A stretch of 64,000 nt of DNA, taken from an uncultured Marinomonas sp. Lineage in GTDB: Bacteria > Pseudomonadota > Gammaproteobacteria > Pseudomonadales > Marinomonadaceae. Position numbers and translations under genes: made by a program. Of the stretch, positions 21,189 through 61,546 are shown one piece after another; position 1 is the first letter of the stretch, and every line of letters begins with the position of its first letter. The notes beneath the pieces are model-generated. The model ran no database searches, was not told the DNA's origin, and saw nothing but the letters and a program-made list of their open reading frames with translations. Where the stretch lies: NCBI GenBank assembly GCA_947493575.1, contig CANLRQ010000007.1, positions 40,208-104,207 on the forward strand. Reading direction: 5' to 3'.

Positions 21189-21300
21189 ATAACCACCAAA
21201 AACTAAGTGCTCATAGTATAAATCAGTTTTTACTGAGAGCGCCCCGATTTCATAAAAAGATATTTTTATTCGAAAAAGACATTTTTTTTATTCTAAAGCA

Positions 21301-34281: not shown

Positions 34282-34344
34282 AGAAGGTACGAATAGCAGG
34301 CTTTTATCCACATGCTTAGGCAAAAGGGCTTATTCGAACCTTCC
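34282..34344. mobile_element. Minimal IS5-type MITE relic (family B)
   Basis: AGAAGGTACGAATAG...CTTATTCGAACCTTCC ends; interior matches the right end of 43108-43369; flanks CTAG/CAAG. Confidence 0.65.
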
Positions 34345-34352
34345 CAAGAAGA

Positions 34353-35474
34353 TTACGCACTTGCTCGACTTCTTTGCGGCTGATGAACATGGCCATTTCG
34401 CCTTTGCCAAAAGGGGTGGTTTGGCCAGCGTTGCTCTTTTTGATAAATCCCTTGCTTAATATTCAGATATTCATCAAAAATACGTAGCGTATCATTTTGA
34501 TAGTGCTTCACGGCATCTGGGTCATCCCCCATCAAAGCATGAACGCCATGACAAGCACTGCTCATTGCAAAACCAATCCCCATGGAAGAAACAGGATCAA
34601 ACGATACTACAGAATCACCAATAGCAAGAAACTTATTAGGAAAGTCAGAAACATAATATTGACTATGAGCCTGTTTAACCCAAAGCTTAGATTGGGTTGA
34701 AACACTGCCTTGCAAGTGAGAGCTCAAAGCCTTAGTTGCCGCAAGACATTGGTTCCATTGCTCTTTACGATTAAGCTGCATCTCTTTCATCACATCCATG
34801 TCGGTAAAGCAGGTCACCACTGCCAAGTCGCGAGATAACCCCGCCATATACCACCAGCCATATTCACAACTTTCTATTCGTTGCAGTTGTTCAAAGCCCT
34901 GATTTGGATGTTCAATAAAGGTTCCAATACCCACTAACTGATCAGAGACAGTACGCTCAAGCCCTAACGCTTTGCCAATTTTACTTTGGCGACCAGAAGC
35001 ATCAATAAGGTATTCACTTTGAAATTGCAGAGCGCCTTCATCAGGATGGACAACCTCAACCTGCCACGTCGCATCCTGCTGGCTGATGTCCATTTGTTTG
35101 CAACGGGGAATGACCGTACCACCCCGCTCCACCATGGTCATCAGCAAGGTTTCATCAAAAAGAGCACGATCTAATTGGTAAGTAGCACCTTGAGTGGTGA
35201 ACAAACTGTGATGATTGCTTTGAATGTCACTGCCCCAATAACTTTCCTTGCCGTAGTTCGGCACAAAACACCCTTCACCAAATTCACTGCGAGGGATCTC
35301 AAGATATTCCAAAAAATCAAAGGTGCTATGAGATACTTGCTCACCAATGCGTTGCTGGGTGAAATCCCCTCGTTCCAGCAACAACACCGATTTTTTATGG
35401 TGCAGCATCAATGAAAGCGCACAAGCGGCCCCAGCGGGACCGCCTCCTATCACAATGACGTCATAGGTCGCCAT
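34353..35474 (-). CDS. lodB: FAD-dependent flavoprotein needed for CTQ cofactor biogenesis in LodA
   Basis: GGGPAG, IDASGR, IGDSVVSFDPVSSMGI; directly downstream of lodA. Confidence 0.9.
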   Translation of the reverse strand: MATYDVIVIGGGPAGAACALSLMLHHKKSVLLLERGDFTQQRIGEQVSHSTFDFLEYLEIPRSEFGEGCFVPNYGKESYWGSDIQSNHHSLFTTQGATYQLDRALFDETLLMTMVERGGTVIPRCKQMDISQQDATWQVEVVHPDEGALQFQSEYLIDASGRQSKIGKALGLERTVSDQLVGIGTFIEHPNQGFEQLQRIESCEYGWWYMAGLSRDLAVVTCFTDMDVMKEMQLNRKEQWNQCLAATKALSSHLQGSVSTQSKLWVKQAHSQYYVSDFPNKFLAIGDSVVSFDPVSSMGIGFAMSSACHGVHALMGDDPDAVKHYQNDTLRIFDEYLNIKQGIYQKEQRWPNHPFWQRRNGHVHQPQRSRASA

Positions 35475-35477
35475 AAT

Positions 35478-37670
35478 TTACCCTCTCATCCTAGTACCTG
35501 AACGGTGCAGAATATTGCTGGTTCGAATCGGCTTAAAGGCGCGTTTCTCGAAATAATCTGCCATCAAGCGCCCTTTCGCTGTCCCTTTTCCTTCCAGAGA
35601 CTCTTTTTGAGCATTAATAAAGAACACAGGCAAGGTAGTGTCATTGTCATCAGAGTTGCCACTGATTTGCCCAACCCCAATTTCTTTGAAATCAAACAGT
35701 TCATTGTTTCTTTCAGATTCGGTGAAATAAGGGAAGCCTTCGTTATTCGAGTTGCGATTTCGAATAAACGCCAATGCAGACCAATGCTCGACCATCTGTC
35801 CATAGCTATTAATGCCACGGGCATAATTGATCTGTTGACCCGCAGGCAGATGACTATGAAGCTGACCAGCAACATCCAACTCACCTGTTAACACATCCCA
35901 AGGGCTTTGTGGCGGCCACCAGTAGCTGTAATACGCCGGTGGCAGAGGCGTTTTTGGCTCCACGTCTTTCGTTGCTGAAACATGAGACTTATCTGGAACG
36001 GAGACACCATCAGGTAAATCACCCCATGTGTAGACCGTTTCCGTTACCTGTACTTCGGTTTGGGTGGCTTTATTGACTTGAGGCTCACTGAAATTAACCG
36101 TTTGAATCGTACAGTTGAAGAAATCTGCCTGCCAAGGGCACGCCATACGTTTGGTTAAATCACCCGGTTCACAGCCACCGCCTTCACATTCATCACGGCT
36201 TGGTGACAAACCGTTTGCTGTAAAATAGGTCTCGTCTTCAAAGTGTTTAATTTTATAAGCATCTTCATACAATTCTGAATTTTGAAGACTCCACGTCACC
36301 TCAATGCCCGGACACATTGGCAAGCCAACACAATTACCAATACTTGCTGTGTCTATTTGATTAACAGGAAGTGCAGCCGAACCACTCACAACAAACAAAC
36401 CTTCAGCCCATTGTTTTAACAAGAACATTTGCGTCGCATCCAATGCGAGAAACTTCTCTACAATGTTGTCAGTCAGATCATAAGAATTTGCACTGCTCAC
36501 AGAATTACTGCCTGAGTTCATTGGCATCATCGGCAATATATCGCCTTCCGCAGAATCACTCATCAGTTGTTGCTGAGGCTGATCGTAATCTCCAATGACC
36601 TTATTATCTAACTGACGAAAGTAATTGTAATACTTCATTCGGTTAGCCTGATTAGTCGGGCTGTTATCACGATAATCAAATTGGAAAGAGAAGAATCCAC
36701 TCATGGATTGGACATTTGAAACCCACTGATAGGCACCAATACGCTGGACTATCGGTAAAATATCGCGTTCAAAGTCAGCAACATAAGCGCCATTGAATCC
36801 CATATTCTCTGTACCATAGGTATCAACATTGTACAGATCTGGCACTAGGTTAAAGTTGCGAACACCCACATCAAAAAAGGTATCGTTCAGGTTTGAAATA
36901 TTGACAATCTCAGGGGCAAAATCTGGGGAACCAACGACAACCCACGCTTTCTCTGTGTCCTGCGGCGCGTTATCGTATGTTACGACACAAGAGACTGATC
37001 CATCTGAAATATCATCATACCAATCGTCACCACCACCGTAACCTTCTAGATCGGTATTACCACCAGCAAACCCATAGCCACCTAAGACAATCAAACGCCC
37101 CTGACTGTCCGTACGCAACGTCCCTAAGCTGGTAAACTCTGGCGAACCTTGGCTCAATTCACCTTCAGGGTAAGAGGAATGAGTATAACTGCTAGGGATA
37201 TTCGTGATGCTCACTTCCACTTCAGCAAGGCTACCACTAATAACCCGCGGCCCTAAATCAATAATCAGCCCTTGTCTTGCTGATTCGTCTTCAATCGACG
37301 CATTACGCCAAGGCACTCCTCGATTGAGATAACTGTTTTCATCACCATAAAGCAAGTTGCCATTCAGCTCTCTAAACTCATACCATGCGGCTTTTTTATT
37401 CGCTAAATGAACCGTCCATTCAATGTTAGTGACATTCGCTGACCCCAAGGTTAACTCGTTGTTGTCTTCATCAAAAATTTTAAAAACTTGACCCTGACGA
37501 CGAATACAACCCGCTTCGTCCTTGAAGTTAATAACCTCCGTCGTCGGCAATAAATTTGCATCAGGTTCATAAGGCAAACCGCCAATTTTAATCGGGTTTA
37601 ATACAAAATCATTACTCTCGGCATTACCCAACCGAGCAACACCAACTGAAGGATGAACTGAAATTGTCAT
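35478..37670 (-). CDS. lodA: L-lysine epsilon-oxidase (LodA, CTQ quinoprotein; marinocine/AlpP-like)
   Basis: SVHPSVGVARLG, HLANKKAAWY, PGDLTKRMACPWQADF (catalytic Asp and CTQ Cys), YWWPPQSPW (CTQ Trp), C-terminal RSGTRMRG as recalled for Marinomonas LodA. Confidence 0.95.
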   Translation of the reverse strand: MTISVHPSVGVARLGNAESNDFVLNPIKIGGLPYEPDANLLPTTEVINFKDEAGCIRRQGQVFKIFDEDNNELTLGSANVTNIEWTVHLANKKAAWYEFRELNGNLLYGDENSYLNRGVPWRNASIEDESARQGLIIDLGPRVISGSLAEVEVSITNIPSSYTHSSYPEGELSQGSPEFTSLGTLRTDSQGRLIVLGGYGFAGGNTDLEGYGGGDDWYDDISDGSVSCVVTYDNAPQDTEKAWVVVGSPDFAPEIVNISNLNDTFFDVGVRNFNLVPDLYNVDTYGTENMGFNGAYVADFERDILPIVQRIGAYQWVSNVQSMSGFFSFQFDYRDNSPTNQANRMKYYNYFRQLDNKVIGDYDQPQQQLMSDSAEGDILPMMPMNSGSNSVSSANSYDLTDNIVEKFLALDATQMFLLKQWAEGLFVVSGSAALPVNQIDTASIGNCVGLPMCPGIEVTWSLQNSELYEDAYKIKHFEDETYFTANGLSPSRDECEGGGCEPGDLTKRMACPWQADFFNCTIQTVNFSEPQVNKATQTEVQVTETVYTWGDLPDGVSVPDKSHVSATKDVEPKTPLPPAYYSYWWPPQSPWDVLTGELDVAGQLHSHLPAGQQINYARGINSYGQMVEHWSALAFIRNRNSNNEGFPYFTESERNNELFDFKEIGVGQISGNSDDNDTTLPVFFINAQKESLEGKGTAKGRLMADYFEKRAFKPIRTSNILHRSGTRMRG

Positions 37671-37952: not shown

Positions 37953-38252
37953 CTACTTATGTTCCACCACTTTCAATTCAAAATTCAATGACTTAAGCAC
38001 TTTCATCACGGTATCAAATTGAGGCCGAGAGCCGACACGCAATGCTTTGTAAAGGCTTTCTCTACCCAGCCCAGTGTCTTTGGCTATTTGAGTCATTCCT
38101 CGTGCTTTTGCTATATAACCTAATGCGTGAATCAGCTCATTATAATCGCCCTCTTCCAGAACCATTGATAAATACGCCGCACTGTCTTCATCTGTGCGAA
38201 GTTGTTCTGCCATATCAAAGCGAGTCAGATTCTTTATGTTACTCATGGCCAT
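37953..38252 (-). CDS. Addiction-module antidote (HTH antitoxin), without an intact toxin
   Basis: FDMAEQL, ALGYIAKARGMTQIAKDTGLGRESLYKAL..G..PQFDTVMKVL. Confidence 0.88.
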   Translation of the reverse strand: MAMSNIKNLTRFDMAEQLRTDEDSAAYLSMVLEEGDYNELIHALGYIAKARGMTQIAKDTGLGRESLYKALRVGSRPQFDTVMKVLKSLNFELKVVEHK

Positions 38253-38321
38253 TGCCTCTCTTCTAATTGCTTAGCTCGATGCCTCGCTATCTCTATGTCT
38301 TTATTTTGTGTAATTAAGTAT
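38231..38321 (+). repeat. Direct repeat copy 1 (91 bp): antitoxin start plus upstream relic
   Basis: Near-identical to 39298-39394 (3 substitutions, one 6-bp indel). Confidence 0.9.
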
Positions 38322-38449: not shown

Positions 38450-38986
38450 GTGAGCAAACCCTTTTTCATGCCTTTTTCCTTTGAAGGACAGCTTTATGAA
38501 TTTGACCATTTAGAGCCTTTCCATATAAAAATAGACAGTGAAAAAGCAAAGAGAGAGCTCAGAATACAAGTCACTTTTTCTAACCACTGCTTCTCTTACA
38601 CACGTATAGATGAACCATGGTCAACCGTATTAGACAAAAATGAAAGTAGACCTCGAGTATTTTGCCCCACTCGATATAGGCTTTCACTTCAATTGCCTGA
38701 CATCATCCAACGATTAAATGACCCTAGCATCAAAGTGCATCAAACGTGGCACAGACGGAATTGGGTATATTCTATGAAAATAGAAGACCCATCAGGCCCA
38801 TACCATGTATTTTTCGAGATCAAAAAATCCCCTAAGCACAAATCAAAGTACCAAGAATTAAGCCTACACGTTGAAAGTGCATATCATGAAGATGAGGGAA
38901 GAGCACCCAATGTGGTCGGTACAATGAAGTTCCATATTTTATGCAACAACACGTACTTAGGGAGGAAGGTCTCAACAAAAAAATAA
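38450..38986 (+). CDS. Hypothetical 178-aa protein, possibly a RelE/BECR-like RNase fold
   Basis: Intact ORF with RBS (AAGGAAG, GTG start); FSNHCF and YHVFF...LSLHVESAY patterns; the fold call is a guess. Confidence 0.6.
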   Translation: MSKPFFMPFSFEGQLYEFDHLEPFHIKIDSEKAKRELRIQVTFSNHCFSYTRIDEPWSTVLDKNESRPRVFCPTRYRLSLQLPDIIQRLNDPSIKVHQTWHRRNWVYSMKIEDPSGPYHVFFEIKKSPKHKSKYQELSLHVESAYHEDEGRAPNVVGTMKFHILCNNTYLGRKVSTKK

Positions 38987-38995
38987 AAATCAGAC

Positions 38996-39138
38996 ATAAA
39001 AAAAGCGCTTACGCGCTTATTTTATACTAATAAATAGTAAATCCAGACACCACTCCGACTTTCGTCTTGGTCAACCTTGCGTCAACACTGGTCACCCAGC
39101 TGGGGAACGTTCAATCTCATCTGGTCAGTCGCTCCGAT
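38996..39138 (-). ncRNA. Candidate ~140-nt structured ncRNA convergent with the 178-aa ORF
   Basis: Locally GC-rich; promoter-like TTTAAA-17-TAGTAT upstream; GAC-GAAA-GTC and CCCAGCTGGG hairpins; TGACCA x3; own terminator. Confidence 0.35.
38998..39024. terminator. Bidirectional terminator, stronger on the minus strand
   Basis: Minus strand reads AAGCGC-GTAA-GCGCTT followed by a T run. Confidence 0.75.
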
Positions 39139-39297
39139 AGTGTAATACTAGAATATAATGACCTTTCTTTAAAATTGATTCTGACTATCAAAAAATCAAA
39201 AATCATAGAATCAGCGAACGCGGGTGAACGCTTTTATATAATGGCTATAGCGTTAACGGTGTATTTATTCGATACCAAAGCGGAATGGCAGACAGGC

Positions 39298-39394
39298 TCT
39301 TTATGTTACTCATAGCCATTACCTCTCTTCTAATTGCTTAGCTCGATGCCTAGCTATCTCTATGCCTATGTCTTTATTTTGTGTAATTAAGTAT
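39298..39394 (+). repeat. Direct repeat copy 2 (97 bp)
   Basis: Matches 38231-38321; carries MAMSNIK, which then diverges into a 24-codon dead-end ORF. Confidence 0.9.
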
Positions 39395-39541: not shown

Positions 39542-41689
39542 TCAACAGTCTCGCTTGATGATTTCCCCTAACATAAATTTAACAGCTAAAGGCAGTTCAT
39601 CATCTTTTAAAACTAATATTTCTTTCAAGTGTTTCTCCTGAACTTTTAATCTTCCAGACCATATTGCCAGAAGAAACTCTAAACAACCTTCACCTTGAGG
39701 GTCATCACTATGTTTTACAACAGTAATAATAATATCCGTAATCTGTCTACTGAAACCTTCATCAACAGCGTAATTTAGCTCTGTTGGTTTTGCAGATCTA
39801 AGCAAACATGCTTGAATCACACCATCATTAAAACGATCAAAACACACTGGGCTTAACAGAGTAGAATGATATGTAGTGGCTAAGCCTTTATCATTTTCAA
39901 TTCTTAAGTCGTGAAGAATTGATTGAATAGTCCAGTAAACATCAGATTGAGAAGATTCACTGTTTTCTAGGCCAAGTCCCAGCCAAAAAGCAAATGTACC
40001 TCTTAAAGATAGTTTTGCATCAGTTGGTGACTTTAAGAATAGCTCGTCTTGACTGGAGAAATTATTGAGTTCGTGTAGTCGATCTTTTAGTAATGGAGGC
40101 AACTTGCCAATATCATCCGATAGTGGATCTTCTATTTCATCAAATACAGAAAGCTTTTCTCGTTCAATATCCCAAGGGGTAAGTGCTTTTTCACGCAACC
40201 TAGGTAAATAACAAGTTTGAAGCGGGATGAGTTCATGGCCGCCTAAACACAGATCTTTCCTAAGTTGTTCAAAAGCATCAAGAGTCGGAAGTTTAGAAAA
40301 TCCAACCAAGTAAGTAATTGTCGCTGAAGATTTTATCCCTCTTAATTTTCTTGCCGTTGCAAGTAACTTTCTGCCAGATGTTATTGCACTAGCAACAACC
40401 ATTACCGAGCTATGACCTTTTAAATCATCTTCTGTTACGTCGTTATAGCAAACTACGTATTCAGAAGGAGCTTTGGCAATTTTAACTATTTCATCGGCTA
40501 GTGATTTAGCAGCATCATCGTCAAGGCAAATTACTTTGCTAATATCCTTTGAAAAGTGTTTATTTACTTTTTTGATTAAAGGCTTTCTGAATGCATCTGA
40601 TCCTGATTCAAGCAACGCTTTTACATCAACGAAAAAATGTTCTCGATCCCAGTTATCGCTTGGCGCTGTATTGAATTTGAGAAGTTTCTTAGTAGCAAAC
40701 GCCTTAAAGAATTTTTTTCTATCTTCATTAAAATCTGTCTTTTTAATAACCAATAGCTCATGTTTTGGGGTTTCAGGTATGAACTGCTCTCCTTCAATTT
40801 TAATAAGCTTAGAGCCACCTTCACATAACTTACAGCCAGAGGGATCAACTGATTTAATTTCACCTACAGCTTCTGATATGTCGAAGATTGCTTCTTGCTT
40901 CTCTTTAATTCGAGAGTAAAACAGCGTAATAATGTTGGAAGACTTAAAAGTGTGTTCATGTGTTAATTTGTGCGCCAGGCCACCACTAGTGGTGGCTGAA
41001 ATGACCACTAAACTGTCATCATCTTCAAGAAAGCTATAAGGCTTGTTAAAAACAGAATAGGACTCAAAACTTTCAATAATAGGGAATTTTTCACCAAACC
41101 TTTTACTTAATTGAATAGCGATACTAACTAAGAAAGAAATTGATGAAGTGTCCACATAAATGCGCTTAATATTCGACTTAAGGTAGGGGAGTAAACCAAT
41201 AGCTAAAAATGCAACTTCAATACCGGAGGTAAATAAGTTTGATGCACGTATAAACTTATCGCAGTGATCACCAGATGGCTTTAGAAAGTGATAACTTGGC
41301 AAAGAAGTTATTAGGCCTTTTCTATTCTCAAATATTGATTCAGCACCAGTAGTTAAAAGCTGGGAGGAAAAACAAAACTCTTCATTGGAGTCGGAATTGT
41401 TAATTCGACCCGTAGAAGTAACTGTTAAAAAGGATACTTTATCCGAAAAAGTACCAATCCATGAGTCTATTTCATCTGCAAAAAAGCTATCGGAAGTAAG
41501 CTCTTCTTTCACTGCTGAGGATAGATCATACCCCATCAAATACACTCGTTGAGGTATTAGGTTTTCATCTACATCCTCTTTAATCACTTTCGTTAAAGAT
41601 GACACTTCAAAGTCAGAGTGACAAAATACGACTAAAGATTGTCTGTGTTCATTTGTTTCTTGAAATCTAAAAGTAAAATAATTACTCAT
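39542..41689 (-). CDS. Tandem degenerate phosphoribosyltransferase-fold protein
   Basis: HFLKPSGDHCDKFI (OPRTase-like loop), LVVISATTSGG and VMVVASAITSGRKL (PRPP-loop-like, lacking the acidic DD), CxxC between the two domains. Confidence 0.6.
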   Translation of the reverse strand: MSNYFTFRFQETNEHRQSLVVFCHSDFEVSSLTKVIKEDVDENLIPQRVYLMGYDLSSAVKEELTSDSFFADEIDSWIGTFSDKVSFLTVTSTGRINNSDSNEEFCFSSQLLTTGAESIFENRKGLITSLPSYHFLKPSGDHCDKFIRASNLFTSGIEVAFLAIGLLPYLKSNIKRIYVDTSSISFLVSIAIQLSKRFGEKFPIIESFESYSVFNKPYSFLEDDDSLVVISATTSGGLAHKLTHEHTFKSSNIITLFYSRIKEKQEAIFDISEAVGEIKSVDPSGCKLCEGGSKLIKIEGEQFIPETPKHELLVIKKTDFNEDRKKFFKAFATKKLLKFNTAPSDNWDREHFFVDVKALLESGSDAFRKPLIKKVNKHFSKDISKVICLDDDAAKSLADEIVKIAKAPSEYVVCYNDVTEDDLKGHSSVMVVASAITSGRKLLATARKLRGIKSSATITYLVGFSKLPTLDAFEQLRKDLCLGGHELIPLQTCYLPRLREKALTPWDIEREKLSVFDEIEDPLSDDIGKLPPLLKDRLHELNNFSSQDELFLKSPTDAKLSLRGTFAFWLGLGLENSESSQSDVYWTIQSILHDLRIENDKGLATTYHSTLLSPVCFDRFNDGVIQACLLRSAKPTELNYAVDEGFSRQITDIIITVVKHSDDPQGEGCLEFLLAIWSGRLKVQEKHLKEILVLKDDELPLAVKFMLGEIIKRDC

Positions 41690-42906
41690 TACGCTAAATC
41701 CTTAGCATCAGTCTTATCATAAAGTGGGATTAATACAGTTATTGCAACCCCCCTTAATTCAGGATGTTCTGTTAAACGGCTAGAACAAATCTCATTTGTT
41801 TCCCAATCAGAAAAGTCGAAATTATCTTCTTCATTCGAGGTAAAAGGTTGGTTGGCAAAATCTCTAAATACCGATAGCTTGTTGGAACGAACCTTCATAA
41901 ATCCATTGAGATTAGTTAAGTTTGCCATTACTGCTGGAAGTCCATTTCCTTTAATTTCATTATTTGTTGACGAGCTACGAAATTGAAAACATTTCTTAAG
42001 AATTTGATACTGCTGGTTGATATCTATGTCCTTTAAATCCCCTTCGTTTGGGTGATCGGCAAGCCAGCGCCCACAGTAACCCAGCCCAGAATCAACTATA
42101 CTCATTTCTACAAATCGTCGTGAAGAGCTCTCACTGGTAGAGAGTTTTGATATGTAGTTTTTAAAATTCAGATCTTGCTCTACGGCATTATTAATTGCGT
42201 CATTGGTTAAATTAATTCCATATGTATAAATTACTCGGGTTGCTGGTTTTATCCATGTATTTCGATCAACACCACGGCTACCGTGTTCATGCGTGTTCAT
42301 AAATAATTCGTAGAACATGCGACCCAAGCTATTAATGCTGCCTTGATTGGGGAGAACGCCTCCACCTGCAACTTTTGAAGATTGCTCAACCATAGACTTA
42401 ATGATGCTTGTAATCTGTCCTATATTTTTAGGTGCAGGGTGGTAACCTGGAGCAACATCATAAAAGTTCCTATCAAATCCTTTTGTGCTGTGGTCAACAA
42501 AAGAATACCAACATAACCTTCCACGGCTCTGACCATATATTTCTGATGGTTGTTTTTCTATTGCAATTTTAGCAAGTTGGTTTGCTTCATTTCTTATATT
42601 AGGTTCTTCTTCACTTGGCAATTCCGTTTGCTTTGCCATCATCAAAGCGGTAAATTTATGGGGTTGTACAATAATGTCTTCAAGTGCTTCACTTTTAGTT
42701 TTAACACTTGGTTTAATTACAACTTTTCGTTCGTTGTTAAAATTAGCCCAAGTATTAACTGATTGTATTGCGCTAGCGAATCCACCAAAAGCAAATTTAC
42801 TACTACCAACTGGTATTTGAAGTGCATCTAAATGATCAGACTTATCCAGTTTTTCTTGAAACCCTTTAATTTTCCCTAAATCTAAAGTAGAAGGAAATAA
42901 AATCAT
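41689..42906 (-). CDS. GHKL/HATPase_c domain protein with a possible N-terminal STAS-like region
   Basis: ELFMNTHEHG (N box), SIVDSGLG (G1), GNGLP (G2), GVAIT (G3); stop overlaps the downstream start (TAATG). Confidence 0.75.
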   Translation of the reverse strand: MILFPSTLDLGKIKGFQEKLDKSDHLDALQIPVGSSKFAFGGFASAIQSVNTWANFNNERKVVIKPSVKTKSEALEDIIVQPHKFTALMMAKQTELPSEEEPNIRNEANQLAKIAIEKQPSEIYGQSRGRLCWYSFVDHSTKGFDRNFYDVAPGYHPAPKNIGQITSIIKSMVEQSSKVAGGGVLPNQGSINSLGRMFYELFMNTHEHGSRGVDRNTWIKPATRVIYTYGINLTNDAINNAVEQDLNFKNYISKLSTSESSSRRFVEMSIVDSGLGYCGRWLADHPNEGDLKDIDINQQYQILKKCFQFRSSSTNNEIKGNGLPAVMANLTNLNGFMKVRSNKLSVFRDFANQPFTSNEEDNFDFSDWETNEICSSRLTEHPELRGVAITVLIPLYDKTDAKDLA

Positions 42907-43107
42907 TTATTCCACCATCTTAGCTTGTTTTGAGCATTGAAAATATACATTAATAATCCTTATACTGTTTTTATAAAAACCATATCATCAAGTATTAATT
43001 TAATATTAAAATAATTTTTACCATTTTATATACCTCTGATTTTCAAGCCGTTTTCACTTCTATTTTTTCTGCATTCTACATTAAATTAGTAATACCTTAG
43101 CATTTAG

Positions 43108-43369
43108 GGAAGGTGCGAATAAGTCTACTAAGACTCAGTCTTTCAGAGAAACCGTCAAATAAGGCACGATTCTGCAGGAATGTTAATACCTTTCAAAGAG
43201 TCGTAACGAAATGTGGCGTTTTCTCTGAAAGACCTGCAGGGCATGGTCTAAAAGCCGGTATTCTTTGTTGAGTATCTCGAAAATAGGCCAGCTATTCACA
43301 TTCGATACTCGCCTCGAATAGCAGGCTTTTATCCACATGCTGAGACAAGAGGACTTATTCGCACCTTCC
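43108..43369. mobile_element. IS5-type MITE (family B), complete 262-bp copy
   Basis: Perfect 16-bp TIRs GGAAGGTGCGAATAAG/CTTATTCGCACCTTCC, the IS5 terminal sequence as recalled; TTAG duplicated on both sides; no ORF. Confidence 0.92.
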
Positions 43370-43657
43370 TTAGCTTAGACTGAAATTTATTATCATATTT
43401 AATTAGAAAAATTTAAAGAGTGTTTTTTATACTCTACTATAAATTCTTACTACTCGCATAATAAGATATTTTTTAAATAAACGTATTATTAGAATCGTTA
43501 AAATTTTATGATGTTAGCCACCTTTCCTCATTTGGTAACTCTTTCATTTTTATGAAGTTTAATTACCTCATCAAAAAAAACAGCGTTAATCAACATATAC
43601 ACCATGTTTTCTACCTATGTTCTTCTTTCCAAAGGTCGCTTGTAGTAGCATAAAACC

Positions 43658-43888
43658 ATGAAAAAATTATTGGATACCTCGCCCAAGCCTTTGTCTGAAA
43701 GGGAGCTGCAAGACATTGAAAGCATCGCCGTCACCTTGCGTGATCTGCTTGATGATTTTATGCAAGACAGGACAGGGAAAAAAGCAAAATACCGCATCAA
43801 CAAAATCATTTTGTTTGGCAGCCATGCGAAAGGCACGTGGGTTAATGATCCGAATTACTTGAGAGCCAACTTTAAAACAAAGCTTTAA
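43658..43888 (+). pseudogene. Truncated nucleotidyltransferase (MNT, probably from an MNT-HEPN fusion)
   Basis: IILFGSHAKGTWVNDP matches GSxAxG..V.D, but the ORF ends before the DxD motif. Confidence 0.7.
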
Positions 43889-44185: not shown

Positions 44186-44464
44186 ATGATAAAAAGTTTC
44201 ATTCACAAGGGGCTGCAAAAATATTATTTCTCTGGTGTCACGTCTGGCATTCAAGTTAATCATGAAAAAAAGCTTCGGTTAATTCTAACGAATTTAGACC
44301 AAGCGGAATGTCCAGAAGACATGGATCTACCGGGATTGTTTATGCATAAGCTTAAAGGTGACCGAAAAGAGATCTGGTCTGTTCGTGTAAATGGCAATTG
44401 GCGCATAACCTATCGCTTTGTCGGACGCGATGTTGAAATAGTAAACTATGAGGATTATCACTAA
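44186..44464 (+). CDS. higB: HigB-type (RelE superfamily) toxin
   Basis: [14 protein letters not shown]-like [22 protein letters not shown]. Confidence 0.92.
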
Positions 44465-44760
44465 TGTCTATGCATAACCCAGCTCATCCCGGTGAAATAT
44501 TAAAAGAGCTTATCATTGATCCAATGGACTTAACGATTACCGCCGCTGCACAGCACCTGGATGTTAGTCGTAAAACACTGTCTAAAGTACTAAATGCTAA
44601 AGGCGCTATTACTCCTGAAATGGCAATTCGATTAGAGTTGGTTTTTGGAACCCCTTCCGCCGATCATTGGTTACGCCTACAAAATGCTTTTGATTTATGG
44701 CAAGCACGCCAACATCAAAGCACAATGCAAGTATCACCCTATGTTTTTCAAACAACCTAA
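44464..44760 (+). CDS. higA: HigA antitoxin (HTH)
   Basis: [27 protein letters not shown]; TAATG coupling to the toxin. Confidence 0.92.
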
Positions 44761-44853: not shown

Positions 44854-45001
44854 GAGACCTTTGCGCGACTATTACGCTTGCTAATACTTTGTTAAAAACA
44901 GGCTCAAAATGCTCATTTATAACACACATTTCTGCAGAATCGTGCTTTATTTGACGGCTTCTCTGATAGACTGAGGCTTAGTAGACTCATTCGCTCCTTC
45001 C
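44854..45001. mobile_element. Chimeric MITE relic: a family A end fused to a family B (IS5-type) end
   Basis: 44854-44922 is the inverted end of family A (GAGACCTTTGCGCGACTATTACGC); ~44928-45001 matches the inverted left end of 43108-43369. Confidence 0.7.
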
Positions 45002-46626: not shown

Positions 46627-46651
46627 CTCTGTTCAATGACTTTCTATCTAG

Positions 46652-46829
46652 GGAAGTTGCGAATACATCCTCTTGCTTCAGTATGTGGATAAAAGCCGGC
46701 TATTCGAGGCGAGTATCGAATGTGAATAGCTGGCCTATTGTCTAGATGCTCAACAAAGAATGCTCAGCAAAGAAAGACAAGCTTTTAGACCATGCCCTGT
46801 GAGGCTTAGTAGACTTATTCGCATCTTCC
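46652..46829. mobile_element. IS5-type MITE (family B), internally deleted and inverted relative to 43108
   Basis: GGAAGTTGCGAATAC...CTTATTCGCATCTTCC ends; flanks CTAG/CTAA. Confidence 0.8.
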
Positions 46830-46883
46830 CTAATTAATTGGATAGAACAACAAGTAATTCAATATGTTTAAAAGGACCTTTTC

Positions 46884-48237: not shown

Positions 48238-51200
48238 TCAGACCGCTCTATTCTTCTTAAAATTCTCAGCCTGCGTAAAAATTTCTTTGTATACTTCATC
48301 ACGGCTTACTGGTGGGTAGCCAAACCTAGCGAGTAGCATGATCAAATCAACTTTTAACTCGGCTTTAATATCGTCACGGTTATTCCAGTCGGTATATTTG
48401 GCTTTATCATCGACCACTTCTTTCACCGCTTGTGATAGCTCAATCAGTTTATCGTCTGGGTAGGTAAAGTCATACTTAACAGCTAACGATTTAAGAATGT
48501 CGTAAAAAGCTTTTTCCTCAAAGCTAATACCTAAGTCATCGTTAGAGTCCATCTCAGTTTTAAGATCGGTAAACATATTGATAATCTCGTCAGAGAAGTC
48601 TTCTAATACTTCGCTCACCAATACATCTTCTTCTTTTCGCTCATTGTACTTTTCAACTAAAGCCTTAAAGCGTTTAGTGAAATCGACTCCCTGAGCAAGA
48701 TTAACCTTCTTCATTTCATCAATGGCTTTAGCGAGCATTTTTTGCAGTAACATTATCTTGGTATTGGGCAGCTTTATCTTGTCAATTTTGGCCAAATAAT
48801 CTTCATCAAAAATATCAATTTCGCCATCATCATTACCAAGTTTGAATATTTCTTCTACTCCATCACTGTTAAGTGCTTCTGCAATCATTTCTCGCACTTT
48901 TACGTTCATTTGTGTCGTATCGGGTGCATCACCTTTAGTTAGTTTGTAGATAATAGATCGCACAGCAAGGTAAAAATGAATAAAATCACGCTCGTTTTGC
49001 GATAGCTTTTCACTACCACAACATACGTCATAAGCCGCTTTTAAACGCTTAACTAACGCCATAAAGCGCTTCTCAAGTTTGCCGACAGAAAGCACAAATT
49101 CAGCCGCATTATTTAAGCAATTTAACTGCGCCACTGGCTCACCCGTGAAATAAGGTGACGAGTCAAATTTATGGAAAATTCGATTAAGTAGGTCTAAGTG
49201 ATCTTTAACGGCAATAACCGACTGGTTGATATCCTCAAAATTAGTTTCTTCTGACTTCGAAAATTGCGCCAACGCTTTATTCATCGCCGTTTTAATACCG
49301 ATGTAATCAACCACTAAACCTTTATGCTTGCCTGCAAATTTGCGGTTAACACGAGAGATGGTTTGAATAAGATTATGTTTTTGCAGTGGTTTATCAATAT
49401 AAATGGTATCAAGAAAGGGGACATCAAAACCGGTCAGCCACATATCAACGACAATGGCGATCTTAAAATTAGACTTATCATTTTTAAACTGTCGGTCTAA
49501 CTCTTTACGGTACTCTTTTGTACCCAGTAAATTGTATAAGGCCTCAGGATCATCTTTGCCACGTGTCATTACCATTTTGACACGCTCCATTGGTTTGGCT
49601 AACTTTTCTGCGCTGATGTCTCCCTTACGCTCTTGTTCTGTATACTGAGTAGCGTCTTCAGCTTCTTTAATTTCGAACCATTCAGGGCGTAACTCTTCAA
49701 GTTCCTGATAAAATAGGTAAGCAATCTCACGTGAACTACTGACAAACATGGCTTTACCTTTTATGGTCGAACCTTCATTGACGCGTGCTTCGTAGTGTTC
49801 AACAAAATCTTTAGCAAGAGTACGGATACGATCAGGATCGCCCAAAATCGAGTTCATACTCGAAGTCGCTTTTTTGCTTTCTTCTATTTGATGTTCATTC
49901 GTACCCGCTTCTTCACACTGCTTATAATAGGCTTCTATCTCTTCTAACTTGGCATTATTGAGTAATACTTTTGCCGCACGCCCTTCATAAACAATACGAA
50001 CTGTTATTTCATCTTTAACCGACTCTGACATGGTATAAGCATCAATAACCTTACCAAATACGTCTAACGTGGCATCAATAGGCGTACCAGTAAAACCAAC
50101 GAAAGTCGCGTTAGGTAATGAGTCATGCAAGTACTTAGCAAAGCCATATGTGCGCCTCACTCCAGCATTAGGGCCTGTTTCACTGATTGAAATTTTTTGG
50201 TCTAAATTTACTTGGCTCCGATGCGCTTCATCTGAAATACAAATAACATTAGTACGCCTAGTCAACAGCTCAATGTCTTCGGTAAACTTATGAATAGTGG
50301 TTAAAAATACCCCTCCACTTTGCCTACCTTTAAGCAACTCTCTTAATTTGTCACGACTTTCAACATTCAAAATATGATCATCACCAATATAGCTTTTAGC
50401 GTTAGAAAACTGCTTGGATAACTGATCATCTAAATCCGTTCTATCGGTAATTAATACGATGGTCGGGCTTTCAAACTCAACACTTTTCATTAATAAGCGG
50501 GACAAAAACTGCATGGTAAAGCTTTTACCGCAACCCGTTGCACCAAAGTAAGTGCCGCCTTTACCACTACCGCCAGCAACACTTCCATCAAGCGAAATTA
50601 ACTTTCGCTCTTTTTTAATATTTTCATAGAGCTTTCTAGAAGCATAATACTGCGGATAACGACACACTATTTTTACTTCGTCTTTAGATTTATCAGGAAA
50701 GTAAATAAAGTTGCGAATCACATCACATAAACGCGCTTTATCAAACAGCCCTTGCAACATAGTATGTAGGCCATTAATTCCGTCTTGCTCAATTGATTCA
50801 TCGCCTGTCACTTTGCGCCATGCATAGTAAAAATCATAGGGTGCAAAAACATTACCCATTTTGTTATTTACCCCATCACTGATAATACACAGGGCATTGA
50901 AAACAAAAAGTTGCGGAATATCGCGGCGATAGCGAATAGTTAATTGTTCATAGGCATGATGTAATGAAGCTTGCTCTTCCCGAATCGCGCTCTTAAATTC
51001 AAACACCACTACAGGTAAACCGTTGATGTACAAAATACCATCGGGAATACGTTTTGAATTATCAGCAGATGGGCTATCAATCTCTAACTGATTAACGATT
51101 TTAAAAATATTATGTGGTGCATTGCCTTTCTTTAGATCAGTAAATTGATACACAGCAGCAGGCTCAGCCGCCATAGTTAAAGGCTGTTCGGCTGGCAAAG

Positions 51201-51573
51201 TGAGCCCTTTATCTTCCGCTACTTCGTCATAATCAATCAGCTGAATGTATAAATCCTTTTTCGACGCTTCACCCGGCTTACTGCCAGATTCTCGTTTTAA
51301 TAAAAAACCATCACTTAACCATTTACAGAAGGTTTTATTACTTTCATATAAGTCACCTACAGGCAAGGTTTCGAGCTGTAGGATAATGCTGTCAATTTCA
51401 CCTGTGGTGATTTCATCAGCAGCATAGCGATTAGCTAAATAGGTTCGCAAGTCATCTTTAATGAGCACTTGTTCTGGCGAACGAATTAGCTCGACTCCTG
51501 AGGTGTAGGGAAAGCCTTGCTCACCAAGTAACTCGATAATGGCTGCTTCTAATTGTGCTTCTGTAAATTTCAT
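48238..51573 (-). CDS. hsdR: Type I restriction enzyme R subunit
   Basis: PDGILYINGLPVVVFEFK nuclease motif, GATGCGKS, DEAH, FTGTP, VDMWLTGFDVP, QTISRVNR; start ATG 51573. Confidence 0.96.
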   Translation of the reverse strand: MKFTEAQLEAAIIELLGEQGFPYTSGVELIRSPEQVLIKDDLRTYLANRYAADEITTGEIDSIILQLETLPVGDLYESNKTFCKWLSDGFLLKRESGSKPGEASKKDLYIQLIDYDEVAEDKGLTLPAEQPLTMAAEPAAVYQFTDLKKGNAPHNIFKIVNQLEIDSPSADNSKRIPDGILYINGLPVVVFEFKSAIREEQASLHHAYEQLTIRYRRDIPQLFVFNALCIISDGVNNKMGNVFAPYDFYYAWRKVTGDESIEQDGINGLHTMLQGLFDKARLCDVIRNFIYFPDKSKDEVKIVCRYPQYYASRKLYENIKKERKLISLDGSVAGGSGKGGTYFGATGCGKSFTMQFLSRLLMKSVEFESPTIVLITDRTDLDDQLSKQFSNAKSYIGDDHILNVESRDKLRELLKGRQSGGVFLTTIHKFTEDIELLTRRTNVICISDEAHRSQVNLDQKISISETGPNAGVRRTYGFAKYLHDSLPNATFVGFTGTPIDATLDVFGKVIDAYTMSESVKDEITVRIVYEGRAAKVLLNNAKLEEIEAYYKQCEEAGTNEHQIEESKKATSSMNSILGDPDRIRTLAKDFVEHYEARVNEGSTIKGKAMFVSSSREIAYLFYQELEELRPEWFEIKEAEDATQYTEQERKGDISAEKLAKPMERVKMVMTRGKDDPEALYNLLGTKEYRKELDRQFKNDKSNFKIAIVVDMWLTGFDVPFLDTIYIDKPLQKHNLIQTISRVNRKFAGKHKGLVVDYIGIKTAMNKALAQFSKSEETNFEDINQSVIAVKDHLDLLNRIFHKFDSSPYFTGEPVAQLNCLNNAAEFVLSVGKLEKRFMALVKRLKAAYDVCCGSEKLSQNERDFIHFYLAVRSIIYKLTKGDAPDTTQMNVKVREMIAEALNSDGVEEIFKLGNDDGEIDIFDEDYLAKIDKIKLPNTKIMLLQKMLAKAIDEMKKVNLAQGVDFTKRFKALVEKYNERKEEDVLVSEVLEDFSDEIINMFTDLKTEMDSNDDLGISFEEKAFYDILKSLAVKYDFTYPDDKLIELSQAVKEVVDDKAKYTDWNNRDDIKAELKVDLIMLLARFGYPPVSRDEVYKEIFTQAENFKKNRAV

Positions 51574-51824
51574 TATTTTATAACCTTCCAATGGCCTGTT
51601 TTAGCAGAGCCTACACATTCAATATAATTATGATCTTGAAGCACTTTAAGATGCCGTTCAATGGTGCGCAATGACTTATTTAAATGCATAACCAACGCCT
51701 GTATTGTTATATTGAGCGTTTGTTGTAATCGCAATAACAACTGCTGTTGTAACTTAGAGAGTTTTACCCCTTCATTTTGGTTAGCAGCACTTGTGACGAC
51801 TGCATCAAGGATCACCTGTAACAT
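51573..51824 (-). pseudogene. C-terminal relic of a Fic-type protein with a winged-HTH tail
   Basis: IEFMLQVILDAV (frame open upstream of the Met), then an HTH ending GSAKTGHWKV; no Fic catalytic motif left. Confidence 0.55.
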
Positions 51825-51845
51825 AAACTCAATGCGTGGAACGAA

Positions 51846-53279
51846 TTAAAAGCACACTGAAAAATGTGTTTTTAGTAGCTTCATCATATTACGCTTTGCC
51901 TTATGTTGTTTGATGATTTGGCTGATCATAAGCTGTAGTTCGTCACAATGATTACCTTGCAGATTTTTTTCTAGCGTGAGCAATAAATCGGTTGCCTGTT
52001 GATAGGCTTGGTTGTTGCCATGATCAACCGTGGATAACACGACTCGACAATAAAGGTCGATGGCTTCTTGTGGCTGTTCCGCCACAATTAAATCGGCTAA
52101 TGTAAGCAGCTTACTCGACTCGGCTTTATGTGATTTTACCCATAAACGGGCTTTATCCAATTGCTGATGATATAGGTAAAAACTTAGTAACGAATCCGTA
52201 TCTCTAAATCGCTTCCCATAACCATTTTCAATTTGATTATCTTGAAAGATTTGCTCAACTTTAGTTTGATACTGTTCATCAATCACCCCCGTTTTTTGCT
52301 CCAGAGCAATTAATGATTTATAACCTGCAAAGTTCGGGCTTTGAGTAAATAGTTGCCACGCCAACTGCCACGCTTGGGTATATTCTTTTAAGGCAAGGCG
52401 CAACTCCACTTCAAATTTTTGGCAGCTAATTTTTGCTCGGCCGTTTTCGGCTGCGCCATAGGCTTTTTTTAACCAGTGTTCAGCTTCTAATGGGTCGTTA
52501 TTAACACATAATTTCGCAATTTCAAGGAAGTTTCTTTCATCGTAAGCGGACATTGCCATCAAACGGCATTGCTCTTGCCAATCATTATTTTGTTGCGCCT
52601 CTTTAATCAGAGGTTTAATTAAACGCTCGAAGGCGTACCTTGTCTTCCACTCACTTAAATCCATGCCTTGTTGCTGGCGTTTTTGAACTTCAATTTGGCA
52701 CAAAGCAACAAAATTATTATGCACTTGTTGTGTTAAGTTAAAGTCTTCTGGTACAGACGGAAAAACATCGTATTTGTATTCTTTATAATGCTCAAATATC
52801 CACTGGGCTTTTTCATCATCTGACCAAGCTTGCTGGTTAAATAAGTGACTTAACCGTTGATTTAATTCACCCTCTATATATAAACGATCACCGCCAGAGT
52901 CATCTACTTGCTCCAACACGGTATTTAGCCGAACAAGTGCATACAAGTTAAGTTGCCACTGTTTATCAATGGGTAACCTATCTATCGCAGTAAAAATATC
53001 AACAAACATATTATCACTGTGATTAAAGTAAGCACTGGCCTCGGCATAGCCCCAAACCTGCTTTTTCGGCAAGGCTTTGGTGATCATTTTTTTTATCTCA
53101 CCAAAACTTAACCCACCTTGATCGTTTAACATGGCAAGCTGCCAACGGCTTTGCTCCTCGGCAGACTCGCCAATATAATTAAGGATAATCTCACTCAGCT
53201 CATCAACCGATTTTTGTGTAAACCAGCTTTGTAGCTGTTTCATGATAGGGTGTTCTTCGTCGTCATAGGTTTTCATCAT
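51846..53279 (-). CDS. Hypothetical alpha-helical/TPR-like protein resembling SWIM-associated proteins, no SWIM motif visible
   Basis: 477-aa open frame, helical repeats, C-terminal HKAKRNMMKLL. Confidence 0.6.
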   Translation of the reverse strand: MMKTYDDEEHPIMKQLQSWFTQKSVDELSEIILNYIGESAEEQSRWQLAMLNDQGGLSFGEIKKMITKALPKKQVWGYAEASAYFNHSDNMFVDIFTAIDRLPIDKQWQLNLYALVRLNTVLEQVDDSGGDRLYIEGELNQRLSHLFNQQAWSDDEKAQWIFEHYKEYKYDVFPSVPEDFNLTQQVHNNFVALCQIEVQKRQQQGMDLSEWKTRYAFERLIKPLIKEAQQNNDWQEQCRLMAMSAYDERNFLEIAKLCVNNDPLEAEHWLKKAYGAAENGRAKISCQKFEVELRLALKEYTQAWQLAWQLFTQSPNFAGYKSLIALEQKTGVIDEQYQTKVEQIFQDNQIENGYGKRFRDTDSLLSFYLYHQQLDKARLWVKSHKAESSKLLTLADLIVAEQPQEAIDLYCRVVLSTVDHGNNQAYQQATDLLLTLEKNLQGNHCDELQLMISQIIKQHKAKRNMMKLLKTHFSVCF

Positions 53280-53281
53280 AG

Positions 53282-53416
53282 TTATGCTTCTGTCGCGGCT
53301 GTGATTTTAGTGTTGTTGTCAACGGGCAGGGTTAATTCACCTGTGATATAGGAATAGCCTTGCTCAGCCAGCAATTCGATAATGGCTACTTCTAATTGTG
53401 CTTCGGTAAACTTCAT
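53282..53416 (-). pseudogene. hsdR 5' stub (44-codon mini-ORF)
   Basis: MKFTEAQLEVAIIELLAEQGYSYITG matches the hsdR N-terminus at 20/26 aa, then diverges. Confidence 0.85.
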
Positions 53417-53417
53417 G

Positions 53418-54128
53418 CTACTTATTCCTTGCCAGCATATTCATAATTAGGCGAATAATGGTTTCTTTTTGTTCTGGGGCTGACTCAGCCACCAGCAACG
53501 TTAACGCAGCTAAACCCGTATCATTAATAATGGGTTAATGATTATCTCGGTATAAATGCCCATTACGGTAAAGAAAGTCGACAAATAAAAACGCCCCACT
53601 ACGTTTATTACCATCAGCAAAAGGATGATTTTTCACCACGAGCGTGTAGCGACTGACAATTTCAGCTAAGCCTTGGCTTTCATTTTTAGCGATTTCAGGA
53701 TTATTCAAGGCTTTATTAATCAGTGTTAAGGCTTGCTCTAACTCGTTACTATTTTGCTCAAAGCGTTGTTGGTTAATCGCATAACCTTTTATTAAGTAGT
53801 CTTTTAAGCGCGCGGTGGCCCATTGTCTAAAGCGCACCCCTTGTTTCGATTTAACCCGATAACCAACTGAAATAATAACATCTAAATTGTAATGATCGAC
53901 TTGGTAAACTTTACCGTCTTCAGTAGTTGTTGCATATTTTGCAACAACTGAATCAGCTATCAATTCATCTTCTTTAAATATATTACGAATATGGCGAGAA
54001 ATAACAGACTTGTCTCGGCCAAATAATAACACCATCTGTGCCTGCGATAGCCAAACGGTATCTCCTTGCAAAGCAAGAGCAAGTTCTAATACGCCATCTT
54101 CATTTTTATAAATTTCAATTTGTTTCAT
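53418..54128 (-). pseudogene. RhuM-like plus Fic/Doc domain gene with a premature stop and an apparent internal deletion
   Basis: RhuM-like YNLDVIISVGYRVKS.QG..FRQWA; Fic HPFADGNKR; in-frame TAA at 53535-53537, then PIINDTGLAALTLLVAES...* in the same frame. Confidence 0.8.
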
Positions 54129-54130
54129 AG

Positions 54131-54193
54131 CTAACCTTGCTCACCAAATAACCCTATAATAGCTGCTTCTAATTGTGCTCCTGTGAATTTCAT
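54131..54193 (-). pseudogene. hsdR 5' stub (20-codon mini-ORF)
   Basis: MKFTGAQLEAAIIGLFGEQG*, 17/20 aa identical to the hsdR N-terminus. Confidence 0.85.
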
Positions 54194-54216
54194 ATCATTC
54201 TTTTGCCATACTGCAT

Positions 54217-54729: not shown

Positions 54730-54731
54730 GG

Positions 54732-55745: not shown

Positions 55746-55804
55746 TTAGTTTCCCCCCTGCAAAGTATGTGCTAATGGTAATTGATTTAATAAGTAGAAA
55801 AAAC

Positions 55805-57220: not shown

Positions 57221-57281
57221 AACCTAACTCCTCCAAGTTTTGGCAAATCGCTTTATCTAACTTCTCGGCCTGCTCCATTTG
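57210..57281 (-). pseudogene. hsdM 3' stub overlapping the hsdS start
   Basis: QMEQAEKLDKAICQNLEELGYGE* versus the true hsdM end QMEQAEELDKAIRQNLEVLGYGN* (19/23 aa). Confidence 0.88.
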
Positions 57282-57321
57282 CCACTGCTGTTGATTTGAG
57301 CAAGGGGTTTTGTTGCATGTG

Positions 57322-61508: not shown

Positions 61509-61546
61509 GTGCTTTCGTCCTTTAAAAATTTTCACTTTTATACTTA

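Follow-up and report, generated by a model that had tools for sequence, protein, structure and literature searches.

The window analysed here is a stretch of 64,000 nucleotides (nt) from an uncultured Marinomonas sp. (GenBank assembly GCA_947493575.1, contig CANLRQ010000007.1, positions 40,208 to 104,207). It carries two adjacent genes on the minus strand, A and B, which together form a cassette of 3.37 kb (Table 1) and match both components of the phage defence candidate (PDC) PDC-M65. The TAA stop codon of A and the ATG start codon of B have one base in common (gcgTAATGagt). The open reading frame (ORF) coordinates and the junction sequence confirm the two coupled genes reported in a preliminary description of the window, and the motifs that it quoted from the two proteins all lie where it had placed them. 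The pair was also described as AT-rich; its GC content is indeed lower than that of the window (0.362 versus 0.392), and the bias is only mild. Neither protein has a convincing transmembrane segment, again as described before: the Kyte–Doolittle mean over 19 residues has its maximum at 0.96 in A and at 1.72 in B, the latter on a helix modelled inside a confidently folded domain. A scan of the locus for promoters and terminators stayed at background level, with a single bidirectional terminator at 39003-39018, downstream of B, which also follows a plus-strand ORF of 178 amino acids (aa).

The pair is a new copy of a catalogued candidate. Protein A matches the PADLOC-DB v2 model PDC-M65A with E 6.5e-42 (residues 4-396 on profile positions 6-394 of 398) and protein B the model PDC-M65B with E 9.2e-124 (residues 1-703 on profile positions 1-748 of 763), so that both models are matched over their full length by adjacent genes on the same strand that overlap by 1 nt. 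The preliminary description had proposed an undescribed system, which is not borne out. Among the PADLOC-DB v2.0.0 profiles, with matches accepted for inspection up to E 1, only PDC-M65A and PDC-M65B were found. There was no match to ShosTA, PsyrTA, the retron phosphoribosyltransferases (PRTases) or Detocs, in agreement with the earlier statement that the pair does not correspond to the validated systems with a PRTase or a HATPase. Genes for the partner proteins of those systems (DprA, a RecQ-like helicase, a reverse transcriptase, DtcB or DtcC) were absent from the window and from related loci. Single-sequence scans of A and B against Pfam and NCBIfam gave nothing significant, and searches of PDB sequences with either protein, as single sequence and as profile, returned noise only.

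PDC-M65 originates from a prediction of 145 candidates based on cassettes embedded in BREX, DISARM and type I restriction-modification (RM) loci (Payne, Hughes, Fineran & Jackson 2024, bioRxiv 10.1101/2024.01.29.577857), in whose supplementary table it appears as cassette CAS_00195 (FAM_00905>>FAM_02964). According to the main text of that preprint, embedded cassettes usually act independently, and only Hma-embedded candidates (HEC) were put to the test, of which seven out of nine were confirmed; for PDC-M65 the main text gives neither a mechanism nor a phage test, and no mention of it was found in any searchable paper text. Follow-up papers testing PDCs left out PDC-M65; one of these confirmed four of eight PDC/HEC candidates. 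The preliminary description had held that a match to an already named system would speak against its proposal. Such a match exists, to a name that stands for a prediction only.

Domain architecture of the two proteins

The AlphaFold2 model of protein A (predicted local distance difference test, pLDDT, 85; predicted template modelling score, pTM, 0.89) consists of an N-terminal α/β domain followed by a C-terminal α/β sandwich. A conserved block, LP...FGG.A.AIQ..TW, is visible in the alignment of the N-terminal domain. The C-terminal domain contains the N box (E..N) and the G1, G2 and G3 motifs of GHKL (Bergerat) ATPases, all in order; this set of boxes had already been noted in the preliminary description, and it is conserved across phyla. 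In alignments of 53 and 35 divergent sequences, including members from Bacteroidota, Planctomycetota and Burkholderiales at 17-25% identity, residues E200 and N204 of the N box, D272, G274 and G276 of G1, G320, G322 and L323 of G2, and G386, P394, R224 and C306 are invariant or nearly so; eight of these (E200, N204, D272, G274, G276, G322, L323 and G386) are invariant in both alignments. G386 and P394 are located in a final G..T.LIP strand that is typical of kinase-type GHKL domains. It is this residue conservation that most strongly supports A as a GHKL protein. The best Foldseek match in the PDB is the CA domain of CckA (E 0.014, probability 0.99), followed by topo VI-B, CheA P4, MprB and MORC, all of them weak, and Pfam HATPase_c is matched weakly by 8 of 77 relatives (best E 0.0024). 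The 148 homologues of A, ~395-405 aa in length, are mostly named hypothetical, a few bearing the UniRef name ATP-binding protein. A further search with the divergent alignment (A5) yielded neither new relatives nor alternative partners.

In the AlphaFold2 model the GHKL domain is preceded by an α/β domain and not by the helical hairpin expected of a histidine kinase. Domain scans found no HisKA/DHp, Hpt or REC domain in A, in B or in the neighbouring genes, as the preliminary description had suspected when it saw no histidine phosphoacceptor domain and no response regulator. We therefore describe A as a predicted kinase-type GHKL ATP-binding protein that lacks a DHp domain and that may act as a protein kinase or as an ATPase alone.

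Protein B has 190 homologues of ~710-730 aa, all named hypothetical and none with a Pfam domain. Its AlphaFold2 model (pLDDT 85.5, pTM 0.70) can be divided into four parts, where the division and the assignment of residues to two phosphoribosyltransferase-like (PRT-like) halves follow from secondary structure and motifs, the Foldseek matches being given without residue ranges. Against the PDB, Foldseek returned more than 40 OPRTase, APRT, PyrR and HGPRT structures at probability 1.0 (E 1e-5 to 1e-2, target TM-score 0.45-0.60). The viral library gave PRTases too, together with low-confidence helicases, and nothing for the C-terminal domain. Residues H134, S139, R148, D180, T181, S231, A232 and S235 of PRT-like domain 1 are invariant across phyla, and so are G439, L449 and R450 of domain 2. 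When the profiles of the two domains were aligned with hhalign, 120 columns fell in register (P 3.2e-4, probability 39%), which lends modest support to a tandem duplication.

Catalytic PRTases, those of mobile elements among them, are defined by an acidic Asp-Asp pair (PMC5512222). In B this pair is replaced by Ser-Ala (or Gly/Ser-Ala) in both halves, which read LVVI-SA-TTSG and MVVA-SA-ITSG, and the substituting residues S231 and A232 are themselves invariant across phyla. The preliminary description had suggested that the ATPase may sense infection or switch the PRTase-fold protein, which would bind or deplete nucleotides or phosphoribosyl pyrophosphate (PRPP) or act as a toxic scaffold. The usual PRPP chemistry is less likely for B because of the invariant Ser-Ala in place of the catalytic Asp-Asp. 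The tandem PRTase fold without an acidic pair that was proposed before thus finds support both in the PRTase matches at Foldseek probability 1.0 and in the invariant Ser-Ala, and B appears to be PRT-like without being a PRTase: the predicted fold is present and the defining catalytic feature is absent. Pfam Pribosyltran has no match in 69 of 69 B members, and the PDB profile search with B was empty. With the E. coli OPRTase sequence, identical to 1ORO, hhalign of the two halves gave P 0.25-0.32, a non-significant value; the motifs are nevertheless in the register expected. A regular expression intended to supply a comparison profile of canonical PRTases found none in 1.3 Mb of DNA, the pattern being too strict.

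The C-terminal domain is specific to the family and is the most conserved part of B. It is mostly helical, as had been recognised, and larger than estimated (~210 aa, not ~150). R596, P614, F617, R619, N621, D622, G623, Q626, R631, E637, Y640, S647, E667, E671 and F672 are invariant here, a residue pattern that resembles that of an active or binding site. A profile search with this domain against 1.84 billion representatives gave 854 matches. Among the 150 matches listed, full-length proteins (~700-800 aa) carry the domain at the C-terminus, while in the shorter ones (125-620 aa) the match falls at or close to the end of the protein, as it would in fragments, and no other fusion partner was recognised. 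As the listed matches show the same architecture only, fusions give no clue to function. Readings of the conserved residues as ART-like (R-S-E) or HEPN-like (Rx4-6H) were rejected, since only helices are predicted for the domain and the spacing of the motifs does not fit. The CxxC motif noted in the preliminary description is present (CKLC at residue 286), but it is lost in distant family members, which weakens a candidate zinc site formed by H142/C143 and C286/C289.

The motifs of A and B are not chance occurrences, since the two proteins have 148 and 190 full-length homologues and the motif residues are invariant in alignments that extend to ~17-25% identity. Strict constraint acts on the predicted ATP site of A and likewise on the predicted phosphate-binding pocket of PRT-like domain 1, the residues for PRPP chemistry being absent.

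Conservation, mobility and genomic context

A scan of ~185,000 species genomes identified the pair in 62 of them, distributed over at least five phyla (Gamma- and Betaproteobacteria, Planctomycetota, Bacteroidota, Verrucomicrobiota and Acidobacteria). All of the ~50 loci with upstream DNA have A immediately upstream of B and on the same strand. The stop codon of A and the start codon of B overlap by 4 nt in 21 of 43 loci and by 1 nt in 6 of the 43, and pairwise identities of A and B across loci correlate with r = 0.97. A and B co-evolve, are adjacent in all cases and are translationally coupled in most. No third gene recurs beside them except RM genes and, in four Alteromonadales loci, gcvTHP.

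The 88-90% nucleotide match of the window cassette to its closest relatives, in Pseudoalteromonas sp. EB27 and Psychrosphaera saromensis, spans only 39555-42909, with unrelated flanks; because the match ends at the gene ends, the cassette is itself the mobile unit. In Pectobacterium colocasium the pair on its own is inserted between malQ and malP. It has integrases on both sides in Vibrio vulnificus and occurs on 13 large plasmids; none was found in phage records. The cassette is a self-contained, horizontally mobile two-gene module. Decay affects the genes unequally. In counts that include some metagenome-assembled genomes, B is frameshifted or interrupted next to an intact A in five loci (L023, L024, L026, L029 and L053; an insertion of ~1.1 kb lies inside B in L026) and is present only as a C-terminal remnant in another five (L033, L043, L056, L060 and L062, several of them DISARM-like or HNH-containing), whereas A is broken next to an intact B in L036 only. 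This imbalance suggests that the cost of the pair lies with B.

Known or candidate defence genes are found within a few genes of the pair in about half of the loci. The type I RM genes hsdRMS lie beside it in seven loci in total: hsdR-hsdM-hsdS is directly upstream on the same strand in L005, L006, L012, L019 and L026, hsdRMS is on the opposite strand in L030, and hsdS and hsdM bracket the pair in L010. An SNF2 helicase (DpdE/DrmD-like) and a DrmMI-like methylase, often with an HNH gene, flank it in ~10 loci. HmaC is directly upstream in L016, a pAgo gene is near in L029 and an LmuB-like ATPase gene in L018. Close neighbours in RM-free loci include Wadjet JetC/JetD, HerA, Septu PtuB, Olokun OloB, DpdF, mad8 and other PDCs, and a distant pair on the P. 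aeruginosa megaplasmid pBJ86 abuts a Qat system. The fixed A–B order across phyla, the cassette as a mobile unit and the recurrent defence genes adjoining it are new here. One Pseudomonas locus (L014) holds two divergent PDC-M65 pairs, at 8820-12166 and 17861-21254 of that locus, which lie on opposite strands with ~6 kb between them; the second is similar to the pair beside the Qat system on pBJ86 (L068).

The setting of the pair in the window is a defence island, and the toxin–antitoxin (TA) modules, miniature inverted-repeat transposable elements (MITEs) and type I RM genes that the preliminary description had listed as neighbours were all located (Table 1). The RM locus carries at least five embedded cassettes and is a textbook case of guilt-by-embedding. 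The PDC-M65 pair is not embedded in it; it lies 5.3 kb beyond hsdR, with MFS, AraC/GyrI and LysE genes, HigBA and MITEs between. The terminal inverted repeat of the MITE-like elements, TAGGGAAGGTGCGAATAAGTC, has five matches in the window, where none is expected by chance. A 75-nt MITE arm recurs in inverted orientation (44926-45000 against 43109-43183), which places HigBA between MITE repeats, and a 76-aa ORF (43658-43888) between a MITE and higB, with no family match, may be a fragment of a larger gene. On the other side of the pair, a direct repeat of ~100 nt (38223-38321 and 39290-39394, 88-92% identical) brackets the unannotated 178-aa ORF (38450-38986) and repeats the 5' end of the HI1420-type antitoxin gene together with the sequence upstream of it. 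Neither Pfam nor PADLOC gives a match for the 178-aa protein. Just beyond the island, at 34353-37670, are genes for a LodA-like L-lysine epsilon-oxidase of 730 aa and for a LodB-like flavoprotein of 373 aa, which point to a marine host of the Alteromonadales type; nearly identical DNA is present in sea-ice, biofilm and seawater metagenomes. Three large minus-strand genes at 9043-18321 (703, 1281 and 1150 aa), with RecD-like and UvrD-like helicase matches, are probably housekeeping recBCD and not a defence system.

Table 1 Features of the PDC-M65 cassette and of its surroundings in the window
Feature	Position	Strand	Basis or remark
Gene A, PDC-M65A, 405 aa	41689..42906	-	ORF; PADLOC; AlphaFold2; 148 homologues
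A residues 1-185, N-terminal α/β domain, no recognisable family	42352..42906	-	AlphaFold2 secondary structure; no Pfam, NCBIfam or PDB sequence match
A residues 186-405, predicted GHKL (Bergerat) ATP-binding domain	41692..42351	-	Conservation; Foldseek; weak Pfam HATPase_c
A N box	42280-42309	-	ELFMNTHEHG at residue 200
A G1, DxGxG	42079-42093	-	DSGLG at residue 272
A G2, KGxGL	41938-41952	-	GNGL at residue 320
A G3, G....(L)IP	41725-41751	-	GVAIT at residue 386
TAATG stop/start overlap, translational coupling	41687..41691	-	Junction reads gcgTAATGagt
Gene B, PDC-M65B, 715 aa	39542..41689	-	ORF; PADLOC; AlphaFold2; 190 homologues
B residues 1-104, small N-terminal α/β domain	41378..41689	-	AlphaFold2 secondary structure; no family match
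B residues 105-300, PRT-like domain 1	40790..41377	-	Foldseek; motifs; conservation
B domain 1, OPRTase-like hood motif HFxKPSGxHC	41261-41290	-	KPSG at residue 137
B domain 1, pyrophosphate (PPi) loop VDTSS	41138-41158	-	Motif
B domain 1, PRPP-loop LVVISATTSG	40982-41014	-	VVISATTSG at residue 228; Ser-Ala replacing Asp-Asp
B CxxC (CKLC, residue 286)	40823-40834	-	Motif
B residues 308-500, PRT-like domain 2, more degenerate	40190..40768	-	hhalign against domain 1; conservation
B domain 2, loop VVASAITSGR	40370-40405	-	VVASAITSG at residue 431
B residues 501-715, family-specific, mostly helical C-terminal domain	39545..40189	-	Conservation; profile search
B C-terminal block SPxCFDRFNDGxIQ, most conserved of the protein	~39821-39850	-	Alignment
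HI1420-type antitoxin	37953-38252		Partner toxin gene seemingly missing
HigB/HigA	44186-44760		TA module
MITE-like elements	43105-43372, 46649-46832; also 34327-34347, 44926-45000		21-nt terminal inverted repeats
Type I RM locus	48238-61589		hsdR 48238-51591, hsdS 55805-57220, hsdM 59838-61589
PDC-S62	51846-53279		In type I RM locus
RhuM/Fic protein matching PDC-S23/S05	53535-54128		In type I RM locus
HEC-02 B+A	54217-55745		In type I RM locus
DUF1016/YhcG nuclease matching PDC-S02	57322-58422		In type I RM locus
SLFN-AlbA_2/HATPase_c_4/wHTH protein	58373-59848		In type I RM locus

Function of the cassette

We lean slightly towards the view that the pair, as a member of PDC-M65, has a stand-alone defence function against phages or other mobile elements. 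This reading is the best supported on account of the genomic context, the mobility and decay pattern of the cassette, and the success rate of sister candidates (7/9 and 4/8). The defence would probably be of the abortive-infection or toxin–antitoxin type.

Several observations weigh against this reading. Within three genes of the pair, known defence genes are absent from about half of the loci, and some loci lie in ordinary metabolic surroundings (malPQ, gcvTHP). No known effector (nuclease, pore, NADase or other) is recognisable in the pair. Protein A of the window does not reach the Pfam HATPase_c threshold and has weak fold matches only (best E 0.014), and B is not recognisable as a PRTase at the sequence level by Pfam, PDB profiles or hhalign. 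None of the RNA runs searched contains the sequence of the locus, and we found no experimental test of any PDC-M65 member in the literature.

For the mechanism we propose that A and B form a complex in which ATP would enable A to hold B in check or to switch it, through a nucleotide-dependent clamp or through Ser/Thr phosphorylation of B. The serine-rich strand-loop-helix sites of B, VDTSS, SATTSG and AITSG, are candidate phosphorylation sites. The first PRT-like pocket of B, which seems to be kept for phosphate binding but not for PRPP chemistry, may bind a phosphoribosyl or nucleotide ligand as a signal, and B could be the growth-arresting effector, acting via the conserved domain at its C-terminus or by ligand sequestration. 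The pair would then be a genuine immune system in which a GHKL ATPase without a DHp domain controls a ligand-sensing two-PRT pseudo-enzyme with an effector domain confined to the family, a mechanism not seen before. We put this full scheme forward tentatively and consider it possible but rather doubtful.

Other explanations can be weighed against the same observations. The pair might be a TA or addiction-type module that stabilises, or competes between, mobile elements and genomic islands and has no specific anti-phage activity. Its compact, translationally coupled and mobile organisation, its occurrence on 13 large plasmids and next to integrases, the TA modules and MITEs that surround it in the window, and the far more frequent decay of B than of A would all fit such a module. 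However, proteins of 405 and 715 aa are far above classical TA sizes, there is no DNA-binding antitoxin domain, and the pair recurs in or beside RM, DISARM and Hma loci, a signature used to find true defence systems. We consider this explanation unlikely, while noting that the boundary between TA and abortive infection is soft, so that it overlaps with a defence function of the kind favoured above. A role as an accessory or regulatory subunit pair of type I RM, DISARM-like and Hma systems, and not as an independent unit, is suggested by the seven loci with hsdRMS beside the pair (in L010 it sits between hsdS and hsdM), the ~10 loci in which it follows the SNF2 helicase and the DrmMI-like methylase, and HmaC directly upstream in L016. 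Yet these host systems belong to several kinds without relation to one another, a partner of this sort is missing from most loci, and in the window 5.3 kb of unrelated cargo genes and MITEs separate the pair from hsdR. The cassette also moves alone, and embedded cassettes usually act independently according to the main text of Payne et al., so that an accessory role is improbable.

Non-catalytic PRT folds serve as ligand sensors in PurR and PyrR. The presence of PyrR among the fold matches of B, and of malPQ or gcvTHP next to the pair in some loci, could therefore point to a housekeeping or regulatory pair in nucleotide metabolism, such as a PRPP- or nucleotide-sensing regulator with an ATPase. 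Such a role is difficult to reconcile with the very patchy distribution in 62 of ~185,000 species across unrelated phyla, with the different genomic places occupied by close relatives and with the frequent pseudogenes; there is also no DNA- or RNA-binding domain and, outside one Alteromonadales hotspot, no conserved metabolic neighbour. We regard it as very improbable. Finally, B could be a degenerate SF2-helicase-like protein or another tandem-Rossmann NTPase whose resemblance to PRTases is topological only, as the Foldseek matches include helicases, namely Brr2 and PcrA from the PDB and, at E 1e-4 to 1e-2, several of the SF2/SNF2 type from the viral library. These helicase matches mostly have probabilities of 0.1-0.5 (two at 0.85), very low TM-scores and a root mean square deviation (rmsd) above 20 Å, in contrast to dozens of PRTases at probability 1.0 and rmsd 5-7 Å; B has no Walker A/B or helicase motifs, and its hood, PPi-loop and PRPP-loop occur in PRTase order. 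The helicase matches appear to reflect the generic resemblance of two tandem Rossmann-like domains, and the explanation is scarcely credible.

If the favoured defence function is correct and the pair protects against phages, the pairing of a GHKL protein with a pseudo-PRTase and a new effector or sensor domain would be added to the immune repertoire, and another nucleotide-metabolism fold would have been reused as a non-catalytic module. If the pair is not protective, it marks a limit of guilt-by-embedding. The present analysis provides evidence that the two genes alone are a mobile functional unit, and it independently confirms their association with defence islands across phyla.

Comparison with known systems

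Like the pair described here, ShosTA, PsyrTA (RqlHI) and the type III retron PRTase effectors combine a PRT-fold protein with a two-gene or TA-like organisation. Their PRTases retain the catalytic Asp-Asp (PMC5512222), in contrast to the Ser-Ala of B, and their partners are DprA, a RecQ-like helicase and a reverse transcriptase, respectively, whereas the partner of B is a predicted GHKL ATPase. B further differs in having two PRT-like halves and extra domains, and in lacking a PADLOC match to any of them. Detocs and Ambrosia are likewise defence systems that include an ATP-binding domain of the HATPase type. However, they are true phosphorelays with DHp/Hpt and receiver domains, while A has no DHp domain, no receiver nearby and no match to the Dtc models of PADLOC. 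The pair is not a histidine-kinase two-component system, a catalytic PRTase, ShosTA, PsyrTA, a retron PRTase effector or Detocs.

The SpoIIAB/RsbW-STAS switches share with the pair a stand-alone kinase-type GHKL domain that lacks DHp and is encoded beside its probable partner, and the serine-rich strand-loop-helix sites of B resemble the layout of the STAS phosphorylation site. There is no sequence or fold match to SpoIIAB, RsbW or STAS, A has an extra N-terminal domain of 185 aa, no PP2C phosphatase or sigma factor gene is found near the pair, and no recurrent phosphatase neighbour was seen across loci. The sensors PyrR and PurR use a PRT fold to bind phosphoribosyl or nucleotide ligands, as predicted for B, and PRPP synthetase likewise has two PRT-like halves in tandem. 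B, in contrast, shows no sequence similarity to these proteins and lacks an RNA- or DNA-binding function or domain as well as a metabolic context; PyrR appears as a fold match only. We use the SpoIIAB/RsbW-STAS switch and the PyrR/PurR sensors as analogies for how the pair may work, not as its families.

The closest relationship is to PDC-M65 itself. The window pair agrees with it in both full-length matches, in gene order and in strand, and the RM/DISARM neighbourhood that defined the candidate was recovered independently. There is no difference at the family level, the window pair being 5.3 kb from a type I RM locus rather than embedded in one. The four-part domain map of B and the invariant residues of the family are supplied by the present analysis and do not appear in the main text of Payne et al.; compared with that text, the description of PDC-M65 as a predicted GHKL protein paired with a tandem pseudo-PRT protein that carries a novel C-terminal domain originates here.

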